Part shown: piece by piece, positions 41,687 through 54,267 of the stretch
Layout of the letters: each line of letters begins with the position of its first letter
Position numbering within the stretch: the stretch's first letter is position 1
Assembly (NCBI GenBank): GCA_963735595.1
Contig: CAVTLK010000004.1
Location: forward strand, 288,001 to 352,000
DNA length: 64,000 nucleotides
Reading direction: 5' to 3'
Source of the DNA: an uncultured delta proteobacterium
GTDB taxonomy: Bacteria; Desulfobacterota; Zymogenia; Zymogenales; Zymogenaceae
Made by a program: the position numbers and the translations under genes
The notes under the pieces: generated by a model
Database searches by the model: none
What the model saw: the letters and a program-made list of their open reading frames with translations, nothing else
What the model was told of the DNA's origin: nothing

Positions 41687-41711
41687 TTCACGCAAATTAC
41701 CGAGTGGCGTC

Positions 41712-43176
41712 ATGCCGAAAAAGACCGAAAAACCGGCCCCCCAATCACCTCTCTCCAAACTCCCCGCGGTGGACAAGCTTCTGTCTCATCCGCACGTCAG
41801 GGAGCTTTCGGAGCGGTTTCCCGCGATGGTGGTCAAACAGGCCGTTCGGGAAGCGGTATCCGACGCCCGCAGGCAGCTCAAGGAACAGCCCGCGTCCGAC
41901 GTGATTGCCGAGCCGGCCCTCCTTTCACTGATCGAGGAGTGGCTGCTGATGTCGATCACGCCGCGGCTCGTGCCGGTTATCAACGCAACCGGGATCATCC
42001 TCCATACCAACCTCGGACGGGCGCCGCTGGCTAACGAGGCGCTCGATCATGTCGCGGCTATCGCCTCGGGCTATTCAAATCTCGAATTTGACCTCGACGA
42101 AGGACGGCGGGGGTCGCGCCGTGACCACCTCTCGTGCGCTGATAACCGAAATCACCGGCGCCCCGGCGTCCGTGGTCGTCAACAACAATGCCGCGGCGGT
42201 CCTTTTGGCGCTCAATACGCTGGCCGATGGTCGGGAGGTAATCGTCTCCCGGGGCGAGCTTGTGGAGATCGGCGGCGCGTTCAGGATTCCCGACGTGATG
42301 GAAAAGAGCGGCGCCCGCCTGCGCGAGGTGGGGGCGACCAACCGGACGAGGCTTTCCGACTACGAACGCGCCATCGGCTCCCAGACGGGGCTGCTGTTGA
42401 AGGTTCATACATCGAACTACCGGATCGTCGGGTTTACCGAGGAGGTCACCGCAGCCGAGCTTGTCGCCCTCGGAAAGCGGTACGACGTGCCGGTCATGGA
42501 GGACCTCGGCAGCGGCTCGATTATCGACCTGACCCCCTGGGGGCTCCCCCACGAGCCGACCGTCCCGGAGGTGGTCTCGTCGGGCGTTGATATTATCACG
42601 TTCTCCGGGGATAAGCTGCTGGGCGGGGGGCAGGCCGGCTTCGTCATCGGGGCGCTCGATTACGTCGAGCGGGTCGCGAAAAACCCCCTGTACCGGGCCA
42701 TGCGCGTCGATAAGATGACGCTGGCCGCTGTCGAATCGACCCTCATGCTGTACCGCGACCCGAACGAGGCCCGGCAAAAGATCCCCGTCGTCAGGATGAT
42801 CACGATGTCCTACGACGAGACGAAGCGGCGTGCGCAGGGCATCGTTCGGCAGCTCAACCGGGAGCCCCACCCGAACCACGACGTCACCACCGTGGACGAC
42901 GTCTCCGGAGTCGGCGGCGGGGCCTTCCCAACTTCCGAACTGCCCGGCCGGGTGGTTACGATCATCCCGCTGGCCGAGAGCCCCGTCAGGCTCGAGGAGC
43001 GCCTGCGCCGGCAACCGGTCCCTATCGTGGCCCGGATTGCCCATGAACGACTGATCCTGGACCCCCGTACAATCACCGACCGCCAGATGCCGGACCTGAT
43101 CCGGGGGACGGCGGCCGCGCTGCGGGGGGAGACGGGATCCCGGCATAGCAACAGACCCGAAAAAGACAGTGTGTGA
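41712..43176 (+). CDS. selA: L-seryl-tRNA(Sec) selenium transferase (frameshift at ~42133)
   Basis: VINATGIILHTNLGRAPL, YSNLE, VNNNAAA, SRGELVEIGG.FRIP, VHTSNY, EDLGSG, FSGDKLLGG. Confidence 0.95.
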
Positions 43177-44338: not shown

Positions 44339-44933
44339 GCGGCATCCGGCGTCTCTCGTACGTCCTGCTGATATCGGCTGCCGCGATGCTCTGGGGGTGC
44401 CATGCGGCGCCGCCCGAGGGAGAGGGAACGCCCGCGAAGGGCGGCGTTTTCGCCGACGTGATCGCGGCCGTCGAAACGGTCAATACATCCATACCCGATC
44501 CCGGAGAGCGTGACTCCGACGTGCCGCGCGGCGAATGGAAGCTCATCCTGGACGCGCGGCAGCGATTCACGGTGCCCCGCATCGTGTCCGACTACTCCGC
44601 GGAGACCGATTACTACGAACCCGAGGAGGCGGATACGGCGGGCAGTACGGACATGACACGGGGGGACGCACTAGACGTTATCCTTGACGCCGAGTGGGAC
44701 GAGTATACGACGCCTCTCGAACTCGGTTCTTTCCGAGACGGCCGACCCGCAGCTGGTAAAGGTACGCCGAGGAATCGCTCGCGGATTTCTACCGGGACCT
44801 GCCGATCCTGATGGACGCGGTACCGGACACGATGAGGGAGCGGGTGCTCCATATCGTCGTGTTGAGGTATTTCAATACGATCCTGCGGGCGGGGGTGGAC
44901 CCCCGTCTCTATACGCTCATGCAACCCCGCTAA
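44335..44933 (+). CDS. Hypothetical lipoprotein (frameshifts at ~44725-44780)
   Basis: Lipobox LWGC; coding-like continuation DFYRDLPIL..QPR* in another frame. Confidence 0.55.
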
Positions 44934-44962
44934 AAAAGGCCGGGGACAATAGGGAGCACGTC

Positions 44963-46726
44963 ATGCGACAAAGAATCCGGATTTCGGCAATCGCCCTGGG
45001 CGTAGTGGTCGCGGTCGCGATGAGCATTACGCTCGTAATGAGCCTCGGGGACGCCCGGGCGGAAGCCCCCGACGAGCTTCTCGGGCTCGTCCCCGAAAAC
45101 GTCGAGTCCCTTATCTATCTGCGCGACCTGAGACAGGGGCTCTCGCCGTTTCTCGGGAGCGACTATTATGACGAGGTGAGCGACCTTTCCGTCTTCGACG
45201 GTCCGTTCAAGAGCGATCTCTCAGCGCCGCTCCTCACAAAACTCGGCGATTTTGAAAAATCGACGGGCATCCGTCCGACACCGCGCCGGGTGTTGTGGAT
45301 GGTCGGCAAACGGGCCATCTTTTTTACCACGAGACTGCCTTCCGGCACGGCCTCGGCGGGGATAATCGAGACGGGATTTCTCAAGCGTCTGGTCATCAGC
45401 GCCGCCTCGATCTTTTCGGGCGGCGTCGCCAAGGAGGACTGGGGGACCTATTCGGTCTGGGTGGTCACGGCCGGCGGCAAGCATATATATTACAAATCGA
45501 CAAAACAATACACGGTCTTTTCCGATTCGGCAGAGCTGTTCAAGAGCCAGTGGGAGATAGTATCGGGAAGCGGTTCCGCCGCGATCACGAATAACCCCCG
45601 TTTCACGGGTCTCCTCTCACGTTTGCCCGGCCAGTACCACATCCTCTACTACTCGACGAGCGTCATGAACCCTGATCCCGAAAAGAAGGGGCTCCGGGCG
45701 CGGATGGTGCGGCTGTTGAAAGGTACGGACGCGGTAGCGGCCACAATATCCTTTACCGAGACGGGGCTTGACGCCTCGGTCCTGGCCCCGTACGGTACGG
45801 CGGAGGACGCTGCCGACCTTATGGCCCTCGGGATGCTTACCGATACGCCGTTGATCGACCTCGGGCAGATCCCGGGGGAAACGGCGGGCCTGATCGTCTT
45901 TCGGGCCTTCGACCCGGGTATCGTCTACACGCACTTTTCAAAGAGCTGGTTCGGGGACGTTACCGAGCGGATCGCCTATATCTCCGTGCTCAAGACGTGG
46001 AAAGAGAAGGGGGGATTCGATCTCGAGGGAGGCATCATCAACAACCTCGGCAGGGGTGCGACGGCGGCGCTCGTCGGCCTCGGCTGGGAGGCCCAAAAGC
46101 CGCACCTGAAGGTGATAGCCTCCGTGGGCGTGAAGCCGGGCGGCGAGGCCGCGCTCGCGGAAAACCTCTCCAAGTTCTTCGCCTATTCGTTTTTCGATGC
46201 CGGCCCCCAGGTCATTACCCTGGATAATGCCACGCTGTCGTACATGGGCGGTTTCCGTGAAAAGAGCATCAATTGGAACGGCTCCGAATATGACGTTTCC
46301 GTAAAGGCAAACCCGGGATTCGGATTCTGGGGAGGGAGGCTTTTTCTGTTCTGGGATCTCTCGGCGGTCCAGCGGCTCGTCGACAACGCCGCGCTCTCGT
46401 CGATGAAGGAGGCGGGAAACCTCTTTGACCGGGACTTCCTCATTAAATCGGCGGCGTTTATCGAGGCCCAAAAGAAGATCCCCGCCGACAATTACGATCT
46501 CTACGGCTATGTTGACGGGAACAACGCGGTCTCGCTCCTGGAGGATTACCTGGTCAATCTCTCGGCCAACTATACCTATTTTCTCTATCAGGATTCGGAA
46601 AAGCGGCTGCTGCCGCTTCTGGAACTGACGCGGCACGCGTTTGTCTCATGTTCCGGGGGCATTAACTTCTCGGGTGACGCCATAGAAGGCACGGTTACGC
46701 TCACGGCAAAAGACCTCGATGAATAG
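44963..46726 (+). CDS. Exported/membrane-anchored hypothetical protein (position analogous to YfaA/MagB)
   Basis: N-terminal TM/signal, L..VP....L beta-rich body; overlaps the DUF1175 gene. Confidence 0.7.
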   Translation: MRQRIRISAIALGVVVAVAMSITLVMSLGDARAEAPDELLGLVPENVESLIYLRDLRQGLSPFLGSDYYDEVSDLSVFDGPFKSDLSAPLLTKLGDFEKSTGIRPTPRRVLWMVGKRAIFFTTRLPSGTASAGIIETGFLKRLVISAASIFSGGVAKEDWGTYSVWVVTAGGKHIYYKSTKQYTVFSDSAELFKSQWEIVSGSGSAAITNNPRFTGLLSRLPGQYHILYYSTSVMNPDPEKKGLRARMVRLLKGTDAVAATISFTETGLDASVLAPYGTAEDAADLMALGMLTDTPLIDLGQIPGETAGLIVFRAFDPGIVYTHFSKSWFGDVTERIAYISVLKTWKEKGGFDLEGGIINNLGRGATAALVGLGWEAQKPHLKVIASVGVKPGGEAALAENLSKFFAYSFFDAGPQVITLDNATLSYMGGFREKSINWNGSEYDVSVKANPGFGFWGGRLFLFWDLSAVQRLVDNAALSSMKEAGNLFDRDFLIKSAAFIEAQKKIPADNYDLYGYVDGNNAVSLLEDYLVNLSANYTYFLYQDSEKRLLPLLELTRHAFVSCSGGINFSGDAIEGTVTLTAKDLDE

Positions 46727-47776
46727 GTGGGCCGGGCCGCTCCTGCTGATCGTATCGGCGGTAACGGCCATCTCGTGCGCCCGGCCGACCGATATAACCG
46801 TCACTCCTTCAAAGGAATAGGCTTTCGGCGAACAAGGAAGACACCGTGGAGATCGCCATTAACGCGGTGACGGAGGCCGGAACCCCCGTCCGCAGGTACG
46901 ACGGGCCGGTAACGGTGACCCTTTCCGGCCCCGCGGTGACCATGACGGAGGGCGGGCCGATCCTGTTCCACAATGGGGCGGCGGCGGCGCGTCTTATTTC
47001 GACGTTCGAGACCGGCACCCTTTACGTTACGGCCGAGGTGCCGGGGCTTGACCCCGGACGGGCGACGATCGACGTCGTCGGTGACTACCGGGATCGGGAC
47101 GAGGACGGCTTCCCGGACGTGACCGAGCTCTTCGGGGATACCGACCGGCTCAACTTCAGGCGCTGGTTTTGCGCCGTGGCAGAATCCCAGGTGTTCGAGG
47201 AAAACCGGCGCTGGGATGAGCTCAACCGGGACTGTGCGGGCCTGGTGCGGTTTGCCTATATCGAGGCCCTCAAGCCGCACGACGACGCGTTTTTCGCGTC
47301 GTACGCCACGCTGGTTTCGCCGGCCAGCCCGGACGTGAAGAGGTACGCGTATCCCGACGTGCCGCTCCTGGGAACGGCGGTCTTTCGCACGTCGCCGGGC
47401 GCGTTTACGCCCGACGATATCGGCCTCAACTTTTCTGCGGCGGGCACGGCCGAGGCGCTGCTCCAGTATAACGTCGTCTTTCTGGGACGCACCGAGCGTG
47501 ACGTGCTTCCGGGAGATCTCTTGTTCTTTTTCAACCCGGATAACCCGCGGATGCCGTCCCATACGATGATCTACCTGGGCGAGTGGGGAAGAGAGGCCGA
47601 TGACGACGAGAACGAGGACTGGCTGGTCTACCACACCGGCCCGAGGACGAACGACCGGGGCCAGGTGCGAAAGGTGAGGCTGGCCACGCTCAAGGTAGCA
47701 CCCGGACGAGCGGTGGCGGCCGGTGACGGAAAACGACCATTTTCTCGGATACTATCGGCTCAAGATACTGGATTGA
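46719..47776 (+). CDS. DUF1175 (YfaT-like, NlpC/P60-type) lipoprotein (two frameshifts)
   Basis: Lipobox AISC; FRRWF, RDCAGLVRFAY.EAL, PGDLLFF, HTMIY, YHTG, W.P...N..FLG.YR. Confidence 0.85.
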
Positions 47777-47960: not shown

Positions 47961-50900
47961 ATGAAAAAGTCCCTTATCCTTACCGTCGTGCTTTCTTTGG
48001 CTCTTCCGGCCGTGTCTCGGCGGCTCCTTCGAGCTTTCCACCGACAAGATCTTCGCCCCCGGCGAGCCGGTCTCGGTCACGGTGTCGGCCATGGATATCC
48101 CGACGCTGGATATCCGGCTCTACCGGGTCGACGACCCGAAGTCCTACTTCCTGGGGCTCTGAGGACGTCCACTCGCCGGAGGTCGAGTTACCAGGCGCGG
48201 ACGTATCCTCCCCCTCGGAGATGGTGGGCGCGGTCAAGCGCAAGGCCGGGCGGCTGTTGAGGGACGATTACCGGGGCAAGCTCACCGATAACATCCGCAA
48301 CGACATGGTGTCGGCCCTGGGCCTGCCCCACGCCTCGGAGCCGGACAGCCCCGCCCCCGGAAAGCTACGAGCTCTTCCCGATCCTGAAGCGCTTCAACTT
48401 CCTGAACCGCTGGCAGGAAAACCTCGTTATTTCACGTTCCGGCCAGTGGCAGTATCACACGATTAACCTGAATATCCCCGAGATCGGCTGCTATCTTGTC
48501 GAGGCGGTCTACCAGGACGAGGTGGCCTATACGATGGTGGTGGTTACCCCGATGTCGTTCGTCGTCAAGAATTCGTCCTCCGACAGCCTTATCTACGTGG
48601 CCGACCGCGTGAGCGGAAAGCCGATGCGGGGCGTCAAGGTCTCGGTCTACGACCAGAAGAAAGACCTCCTCTTTAAGGGCACGACCGACTCGGAAGGGAC
48701 CTACTACTCGAAGGTGAAGACGGGCGATTCCAACACGATCTACGTCTTCGCCGAGGACGGCGAGAGCTTCACGCTGGCAGATCCCTATGCCTACTGGTGG
48801 GACGATCGGCCGACGATAAGGTCTATACCTACACCGACCGGCCCGTCTATCGTCCCGGAGACACGGTCTTTTTCCGCTCCATCCTGAGGGAATCGACCGA
48901 CTCGGGGCTCAAGGTCCCCGACCGGGGCGACGACTACCTGGTTATCATCAACGACGCCAAGGGCAACGAGGTCTTCAGGGACGAGCTTCCGATCACCGAA
49001 TACGGGAGCCTGGCCGGCACATTACGTCCTGGGCGGCGAGCCCTCTCTCGGGGAGTACCAGATCGTCGTGGGCCTAAACGGCCAGAATTACTACAGCCGA
49101 TTTAAAGTCGAGGAATACAAGAAGCCGGAGTACGAGGTCAAGGTCAACACGGATAAGGGCGTCTATATCCGGGGCGAGACGATCCGTGCCGATATCGACG
49201 CGGGATACTATTTCGGCAGCCCCGTATCGGAGGCGAAGGTCGACTATACGATTTACCGGTCTGTCTACGAGCGCCCCTGGTGGTGGGGGTACGACTGGGG
49301 CTGGTATTTCATGGACTCCGACTACTACTATGCCCATGATAAGGTCATGGTGGACAGCGGCACGACGGCCCTGGATAACCAGGGTAAGCTCATGCTGACG
49401 GTTGATACATCTCAATATCTCGAATCGGCCGATAAAGATTATATGTTTACCATCGAGGCCTCCGTCACCGATCTCTCCCGCCGAGTGGTCACGACAAGCT
49501 CGGTGGTCAAGGTCGTCCGCTCCTCTTATTCGCTGTAACGGTTCGCCCGGACCGGTGGATCTACGCCCCCGGCGACACGGCGCGCGTGACCGTTACCGTC
49601 TCCGACTTCGACAACAACGGGATCGCCGGCGTCCCGGTACCGTGATCGTACGGTGACCGACTGGAGGACAACGTCGCCCCCGCATCGATGACGCTTACCG
49701 GTATCACCAACGTCGGCGGGGACGCCGTTATTGAATATCCCGTCGAAGACGTGGGCGATCTCACCTTTGTCGCCACGGTCTTCGATAAGGCGGGCAACAG
49801 CACCACCGCCAGGGACAGCTCCTACTCGATTACCGAGGGATATGCCTACGGGGGGGATTCGGGGGGCGGAGTTTCCATCGTCCCCGACAAGCACACCTAT
49901 GCCGTCGGCGATACGGCGCATGTCCTGATCGCAGCGCCGGTTACCGATACGTATCTCCTGGTTACAACCGAGGGGGAGGCGATCTACGACAGCAGGGTCG
50001 TAAAGATCACCGGCGGTTCGACGATGATCGATCTCCCCATCAAGGAGCGGTACGCGCCGAACATCTACATCTCGGTCTCGGCGATCTTTAACGATGAGCT
50101 CTACACCGAGAATAAGAACATCATCATCCCGCCGATCGAGAAATTCGTCACCATCGAGGTTACCTCCAACAAGGCGGTATACGAGCCCCAGGAAAAGGGG
50201 ACCTTCACTATCAAAACGACAGACGACAAGGGCAAACCCGTGACCGCGGAGGTCTCGTTGGGCATCGTCGACGACGCGATCTACGCCATCTCGCCGGAGC
50301 TGGTCGACGAGATACAGAAGTATTTCTATAGCCTCCGCTACCACTCGGTGGATACGTCTTCGTCGCTCTACTTCCGTTTCTACGGGTATTCCCACCGTAA
50401 GGGGCTTTTGGCGGGGCTCCCCGAAAAGGAGACGAAGCTCGCCGACTTCAAGGGGGACAGCCTCGTGGAGCCGGTGATCCGAAAGGATTTCAAGGATACG
50501 ATGTACTGGTCGCCCACCATCACCACCGACAGGGACGGCACGGCCACGATCAGCGTGAGTTTCCCGGATAACCTGACGCGCTGGCGGGCGACGGTGCGGG
50601 GGATTACCGGCGGCGATATGATGGGACAGGTGACCTACACCGTCATCAGCAGGAAGGACCTTCTGGTCAGGATAGAGTCGCCTCGGTTCTTCCGGCAGGG
50701 GGACGACCTGGTGATCTCCACGATCGCCCATAACTATCTCTCCACCGACAAGAACGTCCGATTCACCTTCGAGGCCAAGGGGCTCACGCTCATATCCGGC
50801 AAACCGGTCGACGCAATCGTCCCGAAAAACGGCGAAAAACGGATCGACTGGCACGTCAGGGCCGATCTCGTTGGGGAGGCGACCCTCACGGCCAAGGCGA

Positions 50901-52607
50901 TGACCAACGAGGTCTCCGACGGTATGGAGCTGACTATACCCGTGCTGCCGATGGGCGTCAGGGAGACGAGGAGCGAGGTGGGCGAGATCATCAAGGAATC
51001 GGGCACGATTACCGTAAAGGTGGATAAGCCGGCCTCCACGATAAAGAACGCCGCCGAGCTTGTCCTGACGACAAGCCCCACGCTCGCCAATACGATGCTT
51101 GCCGCCATACCATTTCTGGTCGGCTACCCATACGGCTGAAACGAGCAGGTAATGGCAAGGTTCTTGCCATCAATCATGGTTGGTTCGGTACTGAAGAAGC
51201 TTGATCTGAGCGAAAAGAGCATCGAGAAGGACCTCCCCGACTACATCAACAGCGGGCTCATGGTTCTGTATAAACGGCAGCACGACGACAACGGCTGGGG
51301 GTGGTATGAGTTCGACGAGACCGACCCCTATATGACGGCCTACGTCCTGTACGGCCTCCTGGAGGCAAAACGGATGCTGCCGGAGGCGGGTATCCCCATC
51401 ACGGTCGACGAGGGGGTAATCAAGCGGGGGACGGCCTCTCTCATCACCCAGCTTCCCTCGATAGAGGAGGACTCGGTCAGGGTCTATGCCCTGTACGTCC
51501 TCTCCCACACCGACAAGCTCAAGCTGACCTGGCTTGACGAGATGTTTGAGAAACGGGCCAAGCTCACCTCGATCTCCAAGGCGATGCTGCTATTGGCCTA
51601 CGAGAACAAGGGTGTCGAGGGAAAGGCGAAGGTCCTTTACGACGAGCTGATGAAGGAAAAGGTCGAATCCAACGGAATGGTCCACTGGGGATACACCGGC
51701 GAGCAATTCTACTGGTGGGATTGGGAGGCCGATCCGCTCGAGACGACGGCCTATATGCTCCGGGTCATGGCCAAGCGCGACATAGACAACCCCTTGATCC
51801 CCAAGACGATCCGCTGGCTCATCGTCAACCGAACGGGAAGCTACTGGCGGTCAACCAAGGTCACCGGGAAGATCATCTACGCGCTGACCGATTACCTCAC
51901 CCGGACGGGAGAGACCTCGCCGAATTACACCCTGACCGTTACCCTCAACGGTAAGGATATTAAGAAGAGTAAGATCACCAAGGATACGATGATCTCTGAA
52001 GCGGGATCGATCACGATCCGGGAAGCCGACCTGAAGACCGGGACGAACACGATCGAGTTCAAGAAGGACGGGCCGGGCAGCCTCTATTATTCGTCAGGCT
52101 TTACCTACTACACCGCGGCCGACCGCATCGATCCGAAGAACAACGGGTTCGAGGTGAAACGGAAATATTACCTCCTCAAGCGGGTGGCGAAGAAGGGCGA
52201 GCTGATTTACGCCAAGGAACCCCTGACCGGGCCCGTCACGAGCGGGGACGAGATCCTCGTGGAGCTGACCGTCACCAACGACAAGGACGTGAAATACTTC
52301 CTGCTGGAAGACTACTTCCCGGCCGGGTGCGAGGCCGTTACGGACGATGCGAACTACGTTATCTCCGGCGACGATCTCTACACCGGCGACGCCTACTGGT
52401 GGTACGCGGGCAAGGAATACCGCGACGAGCGGATTGCCCTCTCAATGGAATACTTCGGTAAAGGTACGAAGGTCTTCAAGTATATCCTGAGGGCGCAGAA
52501 TCCCGGCACCTACGGCGTGATGCCCGCCGAGGCATACCTGATGTACTTCCCCGACCGGTCTGGGACGCACGGAGAGCGCGACCATCGTCATTACCGATAC
52601 GAAGTGA
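47961..52607 (+). CDS. Bacterial alpha-2-macroglobulin with in-frame UGA (candidate Sec) at the thioester position; multiple indels
   Basis: Signal peptide; YTDRPVYRPGDTV, VEEYKKPEY, VD.AIY, RKDFKDT.YW, FPDNLTRWR, YPYG*NEQ, Q..D.GWGW, W.STK.T, LED..PAG.E, PAEA..MY.P. Confidence 0.9.
51152..51170 (+). promoter_or_regulatory. Candidate bacterial SECIS hairpin
   Basis: ATGGCAAG-GTT-CTTGCCAT perfect 8-bp stem beginning 12 nt after TGA (51137-51139); loop begins with G. Confidence 0.72.
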
Positions 52608-53629
52608 GCGGCGGGGGATGGGTGGGATTTCTTCATCGGCGGCTTGGCCCCTGGGGGGCGGCCGCCCTCTTTATCGCCGTGGTCTCCTGCTCCCCGTCTT
52701 CGGAGGCGACGCTTGACAAAGACTCCCGGCTCAGGGAGGCCGCAATCGACGCCATGGACGGCCGACCGGGGGCCGTGGTGGTCATGGACGTGGGGACGGG
52801 CAGGATCAGGGCGATGACGGGGGAAGAAACGGCGGCCGGGTGGGCTTTCCCCCCGGGGTCCCTCGTTAAGCTGGTGACCGCCTGGAAGGCGATAGAGGAG
52901 GGAACTCTTTCGGCCCGGAAAAAGGTTCGTCTGCAAGGGGAGCGCCCGCTTTTCGGGGATCGAATACCCGTGCTGGTATCCACCGGGCCACGGCGATCTC
53001 GATCTCGTCCACGGGATTGCCTATTCCTGCAACCTCTATTTCCTTTCCCTGGGCGACACGGTACCGGCCGATTCAACCTACCGCGGCCTCGTGGAGCTCG
53101 GTTTCGGACACAAGACCGGGGTCAACCTCCCCGGCGAGGTGGCGGGGAGGCGTTTCGCCGCCCGACGGACTCGGCCGCGACTATCTCATCGGAAATACCG
53201 ACTCCGTTACGGCCACGCCCGTGCAGGTGATCACATATCTTTCCGCACTGGTAAACGGCGGGAGCGTGTGGGTCCCGGCGGTAACCGGCTCGGCCGGCGA
53301 GATCGCGTCATTCAGCCCGCGGCTCGCGCTACAGGATAGATGCGTCGCGGGCGGCCCCCGTCATCGTCAAGGGAATGCGCGATGCGGCCCGCTACGGCAC
53401 CGCGACTAACGGCGGCCTAGAAGGACACGAGGTCATGGGCAAGACCGGCACGGGGACGCTCCTGGGGGTACCGTGGGAGACGCACGGCTGGTTTCTCGGA
53501 TTTGCCCCCGCCGAGGCGCCCGAGATTGCCGTCGTCGTCTTCCTCTACCGGGGAATGGGCGGGGAGGACGCGGCGCCGGTGGCCCGCGAGGTGTTCCGGG
53601 CATATTTCGAGGAAGGTGCGAACCAGTGA
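52604..53629 (+). CDS. Penicillin-binding transpeptidase-domain lipoprotein (frameshifts)
   Basis: Lipobox VVSC; PGSLVK (SxxK), SCN (SxN), GKTGTG, HGWFLGFAP. Confidence 0.82.
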
Positions 53630-54267
53630 GGAGGACGTGGATCGCCTCGCTTATCGTGATCCTTGCGGCCGCGCAGGCGCCCGCGCTCGATTTTTCACTA
53701 GATCGAGACCAGGCACTTTACGATCAGGTTCGGTGAAACGTCCGCGTCACGAATACGTAACGCGGCCGCGCTCTTCGAGGCGGCCTACGGGACGATTGAA
53801 CAGGTGCTCGGGACAATCGGTACGCGGCCGATCGACGTGGTAATCTTTGCCGAGACGGGCGATTTCACCGCCGAGACGGGGCTTGCCGTATGGTCGGCCT
53901 CGGCAACGATCGACGGGGCGATCTATATGCAGCCGGTCCCGGTGCTCACGGCCCGCGGCGTGCTGGACACGACGATCCGCCACGAGGTATGCCTCGTTTT
54001 TCTGCTCAGACGCTACGGGGCCGACATGCCGGCGTGGCTCGCGGAGGGCCTGGCGGTCTATCACGCGGGCGAGATCGAGGTCCTCCGGCGGGGACTTTTC
54101 GGGGACGCCACCCCTGATCTCGGCTCCGGACGACATCGACGCAACTCCTGTTTGACCGGACCGACCGGGAAAGAAATCGCTGGGGATACGTGATGGCCTA
54201 CGAGGCGGTGCGGTCGATGATAGAGGGAGAGGCCGCGGCGCATGCGCGCAAGGGAAGTACGCGATAA
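53626..54267 (+). CDS. Peptidase MA-like domain protein, zinc motif degenerate (frameshifts)
   Basis: Signal peptide; RHEVCL in place of HEXXH; PAWLAEGLAVY. Confidence 0.65.

Follow-up and report, generated by a model that had tools for sequence, protein, structure and literature searches.

An in-frame TGA at the thioester position of a bacterial alpha-2-macroglobulin is a conserved candidate selenocysteine codon

Members of the alpha-2-macroglobulin (A2M) superfamily, such as A2M itself, complement C3/C4 and the TEPs, have a single reactive bond that has long been studied as a Cys-Gln thioester, and the question raised by the locus described here is what becomes of such a protein when the codon for that cysteine is TGA. 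The window, i.e., the whole 64,000-nucleotide stretch of DNA that was analysed, belongs to a member of the Zymogenaceae and reads TAC CCA TAC GGC TGA AAC GAG CAG GTA ATG at positions 51125-51154, which gives Y-P-Y-G-TGA-N-E-Q-V-M. This is how it had been read in the first-pass annotation, which saw a single TGA between two open reading frames (49688..51139 and 51152..53230); the two do share a common frame and this reading stands, whereas the extent of 49688-53230 given to the gene was wrong and has been replaced, by alignment to intact relatives, with the one in Table 1. The class of Ca. Zymogenaceae / Zymogenus is described, in the portion of bioRxiv 2021.03.22.436540 used here, as anaerobic and fermenting sugars and amino acids.

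Table 1. Features of the locus in window coordinates (G000 is the window genome, G001 another family member).
Feature	Position	Strand	Basis or remark
selA (selenocysteine synthase), one frameshift here	41703..43173	+	some 9.4 kb before the TGA
DUF1175 gene directly upstream of the A2M gene; in G000 and G001, not in every relative	46641..47773	+	
A2M gene; product of about 1,550 aa where the relatives are intact	47961..52607	+	alignment to two intact relatives; Pfam domains
Signal-peptide-like N terminus, MKKS and a hydrophobic stretch, lipobox Cys not seen	47961..48020	+	by eye
Probable bait region	50384..50473	+	phmmer alignment with E. coli YfhM segment GRLAALRFGGDG, which we take to be its bait
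Y-P-Y-G; both Tyr correspond to TED pocket tyrosines, Tyr1175/1177 in Salmonella A2M (PMC4498604, part consulted)	51125..51136	+	
TGA at the thioester Cys column, candidate selenocysteine	51137..51139	+	253/255 motif-bearing homologue proteins have Cys here
N-E-Q, with Gln (51146-51148) as acyl partner of the putative ester	51140..51148	+	E and Q invariant in a 121-row alignment
SECIS-type hairpin AUGGCAAG-GUU-CUUGCCAU, loop at 51160-51162	51152..51170	+	20 nt after UGA
Met-Tyr of C-terminal MG10, predicted lid of the ester pocket; Met1625/Tyr1626 in Salmonella A2M (PMC4498604, part consulted)	52541..52546	+	near-invariant M528, Y529; YfhM alignment
Gene, immediately downstream, for a transpeptidase-only penicillin-binding protein (PBP) of 343 aa in G001; disrupted here by frameshift	52628..53614	+	

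Translation of 49688-52609 with TGA read as U yields 974 residues with a single such codon, and the Pfam domain TED_complement spans this codon, flanked by A2M_BRD, A2M and bMG10. The motif was found in 255 of 258 homologue proteins, which apart from cysteine have one Pro, one Ile and no U at the column, bearing out the earlier claim that the TGA falls on the conserved reactive cysteine of an A2M. The A2M copy of this assembly is itself frameshifted; six relatives have intact A2M reading frames of 1546-1555 aa. Compared with two of the intact relatives, the gene here has around ten frameshifts in its upstream third (before 49688) and one near 52550, with zero net frameshift over 49688-52548, TGA included. 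Frameshifts were likewise present in each of the five neighbouring genes tested, and those of the A2M gene therefore look like assembly indels.

In an assembly this rich in indels the TGA might be a sequencing error, or a nonsense mutation shared by copies of a pseudogene, as a single change turns TGC or TGT into TGA. Of 61 genomes searched with a 200-aa query, 19 had matches, among them all nine other family members, and at the thioester column eight of the ten family genomes have TGA (G000, G002, G003, G004, G005, G007, G008 and G009), while two have a cysteine codon (TGT in G001, TGC in G006); ten distinct loci outside the family had Cys, and of the remaining loci three were without the motif and one was an unrelated match. 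The TGA is the only stop within the gene in each of the four intact TGA genes translated, which come from four of the cleaner assemblies (G004, G005, G007, G008; 1546-1553 codons). Both halves of the gene are, judging from their codons, under purifying selection, with dN/dS of 0.11-0.19 in four TGA-TGA pairs (a rough Nei-Gojobori estimate with dS partly saturated). A contig from an independent public run, X5 (library type not on record), spans 51111-51358 with four differences, none of them within the TGA. One contig of an RNA run, X19, covers 50993-51246 with ten differences, six of them listed, and neither transcription nor the codon can be read from it; run X1 stops short of the codon, which in X2 falls at the contig end. 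Recurrence of the TGA with intact flanking frames, selection on both sides, an invariant hairpin (see below) and the unchanged codon in X5 refute error or pseudogene for the family and make it scarcely credible as an explanation overall, though the hairpin-less singletons L067, L102, L071 and L113 may be errors or nonsense mutations. We consider it confirmed, at the level of sequence comparison, that the TGA at the thioester site is a real, conserved codon of the selenocysteine (Sec) type.

The hairpin that follows the TGA starts 12 nt past it and has an 8-bp stem, a GUU loop and an energy of -9.1 kcal/mol, all within the limits for bSECIS elements set out in section 5 of PMC13188914 (a loop of 3-9 nt with G in one of the first two places, a stem of 4-16 bp, a distance of 16-37 nt from the UGA and an energy of -7.5 or lower). 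The first-pass annotation makes no mention of this hairpin. Starting with the TGA itself, a run of 35 bases is identical in 13 TGA copies, from the eight genomes and five metagenome contigs (L082, whose context extended beyond its contig, was left out), and third positions are invariant in 10/10 codons after the TGA as against 1/10 before it and 1/10 further on. The two Cys copies differ from them at 8 and 6 bases of the hairpin stretch and both encode Ser, the family consensus, where the TGA copies encode Ala.

A synonymous-recoding test, limited to unbulged stems, was applied to 39 distinct TGA contexts (12 duplicates being skipped) and 12 Cys contexts (L057 having no row), and gave p<0.05 for 24 of the former and for none of the latter (lowest value 0.050). 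All ten contexts of the family type passed (p<=0.017 throughout) compared with 14/29 of the others, so that 15 of the 39 fail, and four of the passing contexts have their best hairpin at 32-33 nt and not at 20. The first G of the loop is invariant in 13 contexts chosen for having a stem near this register, where it is the wobble base of a codon for Arg, Lys, Gln or Gly. With a fixed 8-pair stem across 13 clades, only 64% of cells are paired and 13 cells have two-sided changes, covariation exceeding that of all shuffles, while pair-type counts do not; the fold z-score of the 60 nt is only -2.25, and Rfam gave zero matches over 51000-51300. The hairpin behind the UGA of the formate dehydrogenase gene of the same genome (GUGGCAGGUCUUGCCAC) is near-identical to that of the A2M. 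By these sequence comparisons the hairpin is tied to the TGA state.

Selection on both halves would also fit a conserved split gene, with the TGA as a true stop, a fresh start of the C-terminal half at an ATG five codons later (51152) and a hairpin that governs re-initiation; gene callers do annotate two proteins. That ATG is, however, buried in the hairpin stem, some lineages have no start codon near the TGA (L061), and the C-terminal half would be left without a signal peptide. Several separate lineages would also each have to be broken at precisely this Cys column, and an unbroken Cys gene would have to have been regained twice, which makes a split gene very improbable.

Sec insertion at the TGA calls for its own machinery, and the genome of the window contains selA, selB, selD and tRNA-Sec (selC), so that the check for selB, selC and selD proposed in the first-pass annotation gave a positive result, with selA in addition. 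A single selB was above the cut-off in this genome, which is 93% complete, and two matches above it were obtained for selD (C3:6046-6975 and C3:24832-25476), one of which has an in-frame TGA and a hairpin of its own. In the family, selB was found in 9/10 genomes and tRNA-Sec in 8/10, selB being absent from what was recovered of G001 and tRNA-Sec from what was recovered of G004 and G009 (genomes 88-94% complete), all three of which have selA; the selB match of G009 holds a TAA. G006 has Cys in its A2M despite having selB and selC. G001, G002, G004 and G005, but not G007 or G008, have a gene that begins in the same way as the selA of the window and lies at a like distance, about 9.4 kb, before the A2M TGA.

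The UGA could instead be decoded as cysteine by a tRNA-Cys of the selC* type with a UCA anticodon, such as is known from some delta-proteobacteria according to the part of PMC5389517 consulted, or read-through, whether leaky or global, could insert some other residue. The selC* tRNA-Cys described there has U73, whereas the sole UCA tRNA that ARAGORN found among the 47 tRNA genes of the window genome has G73 and G1:C72, and there is no second selB above the cut-off. TGA is moreover the commonest stop of long open reading frames, ending 195 of the 522 with at least 500 codons, so that it is not reassigned across the genome; these stop-codon counts are the only result used from a genome-wide read-through screen that was itself too noisy for an inventory of the selenoproteome. 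There is, accordingly, only a slim chance that the codon is read in either of these ways.

Other in-frame TGA codons of the same genome were also noted. At G000:C1:960094 (+) a candidate selenoprotein gene reads VIPCG*EGKR (the asterisk marking the TGA), with 75 codons before and 276 after it and a strong G-loop hairpin of -13.3 kcal/mol lying 19 nt out. Likely Sec codons on the same contig are those at 684632 (-) RI*HS, 781467 (-) PT*PYC and 603717 (+) KGG*PYT, which we take to belong to a second formate-dehydrogenase-like protein, a glutaredoxin-like protein and a small protein, respectively; they come from a motif screen in which most rows were chance.

Beyond the family, a scan of metagenome contigs for the TGA pattern gave 64 matches, 43 of them in frame in A2M genes (assigned by BLASTP at E<1e-5, 22-85% identity) and 21 due to chance. 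As the pattern required E-Q and a following purine-pyrimidine, variants such as U-x-C-Q would be missed and the conservation of these features among the matches is circular. Eight of these A2Ms are of the family type. The others come from several lineages; among them are a clade in which the two halves carry the label Ca. Fervidibacter / Armatimonadota and another labelled Planctomycetota. The first-pass annotation had proposed a search for TGA homologues with Cys orthologues, and the same column is indeed TGA in family genomes and metagenome copies alike, with Cys orthologues existing. It had also named results that would tell against it, such as reads with TGC or TGT or a genome without selB and selC; where such tests were run, all favoured its reading.

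In the phylum to which the window belongs, 18 pattern matches were obtained in 401 genomes, eight in the family and ten outside it, and none of these ten lies in an A2M. A sample of 201 genomes from another phylum, built around a Planctomycetota record, gave two matches, both A2Ms, and both genomes have selA and selB. One of the two (L142, G484:C47) has selB 6.4 kb downstream of the A2M, on the same strand and contig, while the TGA-bearing A2M of L143 (G459:C9), at about 2,300 aa, is far longer than others. In the Fervidibacter-type clade all six top cluster representatives end at YPYG, and at NCBI the two halves have consecutive locus tags with the second filed as a separate hypothetical protein. 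F. sacchari PD1 has been cultured; in PMC11535203, selA, selB and selD appear in its RNA table, and two MG2-domain proteins appear both there and in the proteome table, neither of which could be matched to the TGA gene. Among the Fervidibacter-type members listed there was no RefSeq accession.

In a FastTree phylogeny of 302 TED rows, TGA copies turn up in many different clades and have Cys copies as sisters (14 changes by Fitch parsimony), which suggests several origins, though the most distant TGA sequences have no close Cys relatives in the sample. In an 18-row tree built without the motif and hairpin codons, the Cys copies of G001 and G006 fall within the TGA group on well-supported branches, and because all TGA copies have one hairpin sequence in common, the simplest reading, as judged by branch support, is that Cys was regained twice independently and the hairpin lost each time. 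Selenium is then not essential to the protein, as two reversions show, and since these two lineages went back to Cys while retaining Sec genes, the gain from it appears modest.

An AlphaFold model from TED to MG10, with Cys modelled for Sec, had a pLDDT of 91 and a pTM of 0.78; its best match was native E. coli A2M (E 2.6e-26, about 20% identity), with a higher TM score against the native structure 4ziu (0.53) than against the activated 4ziq (0.42). MG domains, a bait-region domain, TED, a C-terminal MG and the predicted fold are all found, and on this evidence from sequence and model the protein is assigned to the A2M superfamily. The ester pocket of Salmonella A2M is formed by two TED tyrosines and a C-terminal Met-Tyr, as described in the part of PMC4498604 consulted, and sequence alignment indicates that these residues are kept here, the tyrosines in the Y-P-Y that precedes the Sec and the Met-Tyr close to the C-terminal end.

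Selenocysteine is with high probability inserted at the UGA of this A2M. SelB would, with equally high probability, bind the hairpin, which lies 20 nt beyond the UGA, and deliver Sec-tRNA, so that translation would continue to about 1,550 aa, and the product would be exported by its signal peptide and fold as a bacterial A2M. The selenol would then attack the Gln three residues on with loss of ammonia, giving an internal gamma-glutamyl selenoester shielded by the Tyr/Tyr/Met/Tyr pocket; once Sec is in place, we consider this bond quite probable. As a selenol is ionised at neutral pH, ring closure would be made easier. Cutting of the bait by a protease would cause TED to swing out and the selenoester to acylate a lysine of the protease, which would be trapped; such covalent trapping we infer by analogy with E. 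coli and Salmonella A2M.

In peptide chemistry, ligation through selenoesters outpaces that through thioesters by orders of magnitude, according to the part of PMC8883728 consulted, and by analogy the selenium ester is likely to be a faster acyl donor than a thioester, with a modest gain. Selenoesters also hydrolyse (same source), hence a stable stored selenoester is not assured, and this lends weight to a different outcome of Sec insertion, in which the selenoester is absent or quickly lost to water and the protein traps proteases non-covalently as MagD does, or carries a redox or metal-binding selenol. MagD, which has no thioester, does trap protease in the account consulted in PMC5764988, and catalogued selenoproteins are mostly redox proteins (PMC13188914). 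Against this, the protein retains the Gln, the Glu and the four pocket residues of thioester A2Ms, the window protein has no second Cys near the Sec, and Sec and Cys are swapped without further change except the Ala/Ser in the hairpin; a protein with Sec and no lasting ester is in our judgement rather unlikely. Formation of the internal selenoester, as deduced from sequence, is moderately likely, and an exported, full-length Sec-A2M with a selenoester trap is a reasonably likely account of the whole. The wider proposal, of a stored, self-formed Sec-Gln selenoester warhead that has arisen several times in unrelated bacteria, with selenium supply deciding whether the cell makes the full covalent trap or only a truncated protein of about 1,060 aa, is one that we favour slightly.

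The gene lies in an operon made up of DUF1175, A2M, the transpeptidase-only PBP and an unclassified exported protein. The last of these, at 53693-54252, is conserved, has about 215 aa in relatives, looks exported and contains a WLAEGLA motif, with no Pfam match; we take it to be metallopeptidase-like, and it may act together with the A2M or be one of its targets. Upstream of DUF1175, at 44878-46723, a conserved, exported-looking protein of 600 aa has no match in Pfam or NCBIfam, and NCBIfam has no model for the A2M protein either.

The first-pass annotation knew of no selenoprotein in this family, and none was found in the selenoprotein catalogues and literature searched, which cover few subscription papers. 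A2M is absent from the main text and Table 1 of the 2026 catalogue of 119 selenoprotein families (PMC13188914), and the word 'Macroglobulin' from PMC12013277 (main text and four supplements), PMC9312934, bioRxiv 2022.07.06.499078 (main text) and PMC13326102 (main text); nor did the literature searched give any example of a natural intramolecular Sec-Gln selenoester in a protein. The A2M very probably contains selenocysteine and may have a selenium ester as its warhead, and such a use of selenium does not occur in these catalogues; if true, it would give the selenoproteins one more family whose chemistry is not redox. The natural pairs of Sec and Cys orthologues, which are 86-87% identical, permit a direct comparison of ring self-formation and of protection from water by the pocket, which could show how selenium affects speed or the choice between amine and water. 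Such genes also fall into a blind spot of annotation, being split in two by databases.

In comparison with known systems, Type I A2Ms (E. coli ECAM/YfhM, 4ziu, 5a42 and 4ziq; Salmonella SaA2M, 4u48) share with the present protein the MG-BRD-A2M-TED-MG10 order, the fold, the x-E-Q motif, the Tyr/Tyr/Met/Tyr pocket and an adjoining PBP gene. They differ in having Cys where a Sec codon is found here (UxEQ as read, not CxEQ), in being only about 20% identical, in the lipobox, which was not seen in the window protein, and in adjoining pbp1c, whereas the PBP here is a 343-aa transpeptidase-only protein without a transglycosylase Pfam match. Likeness to Type II A2Ms (P. aeruginosa MagD, E. coli YfaS) is seen in the nearest homologues, which are named 'YfaS (alpha-2-macroglobulin family)', and in the DUF1175 gene upstream here, DUF1175 being presumably linked to the yfa/mag operon. 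Type II is, however, described as being without CxEQ in the part of PMC5764988 consulted, while the motif column, Glu and Gln are kept here, and the operon fits neither type as defined there. Outside the superfamily, a UGA at a reactive, non-redox Cys is likewise found in the glutamine amidotransferase-type NF004836 (GxUxG) and in methylated-DNA-protein-cysteine methyltransferase (PMC13188914 Table 1). These two are enzymes or suicide acceptors, with an adduct that is transient or intermolecular. By class I amidotransferase chemistry, the Sec form of the former would pass via a gamma-glutamyl selenoester. In the A2M, unlike in either of them, the bond would be intramolecular and stored, within a 170-kDa exported structural trap.
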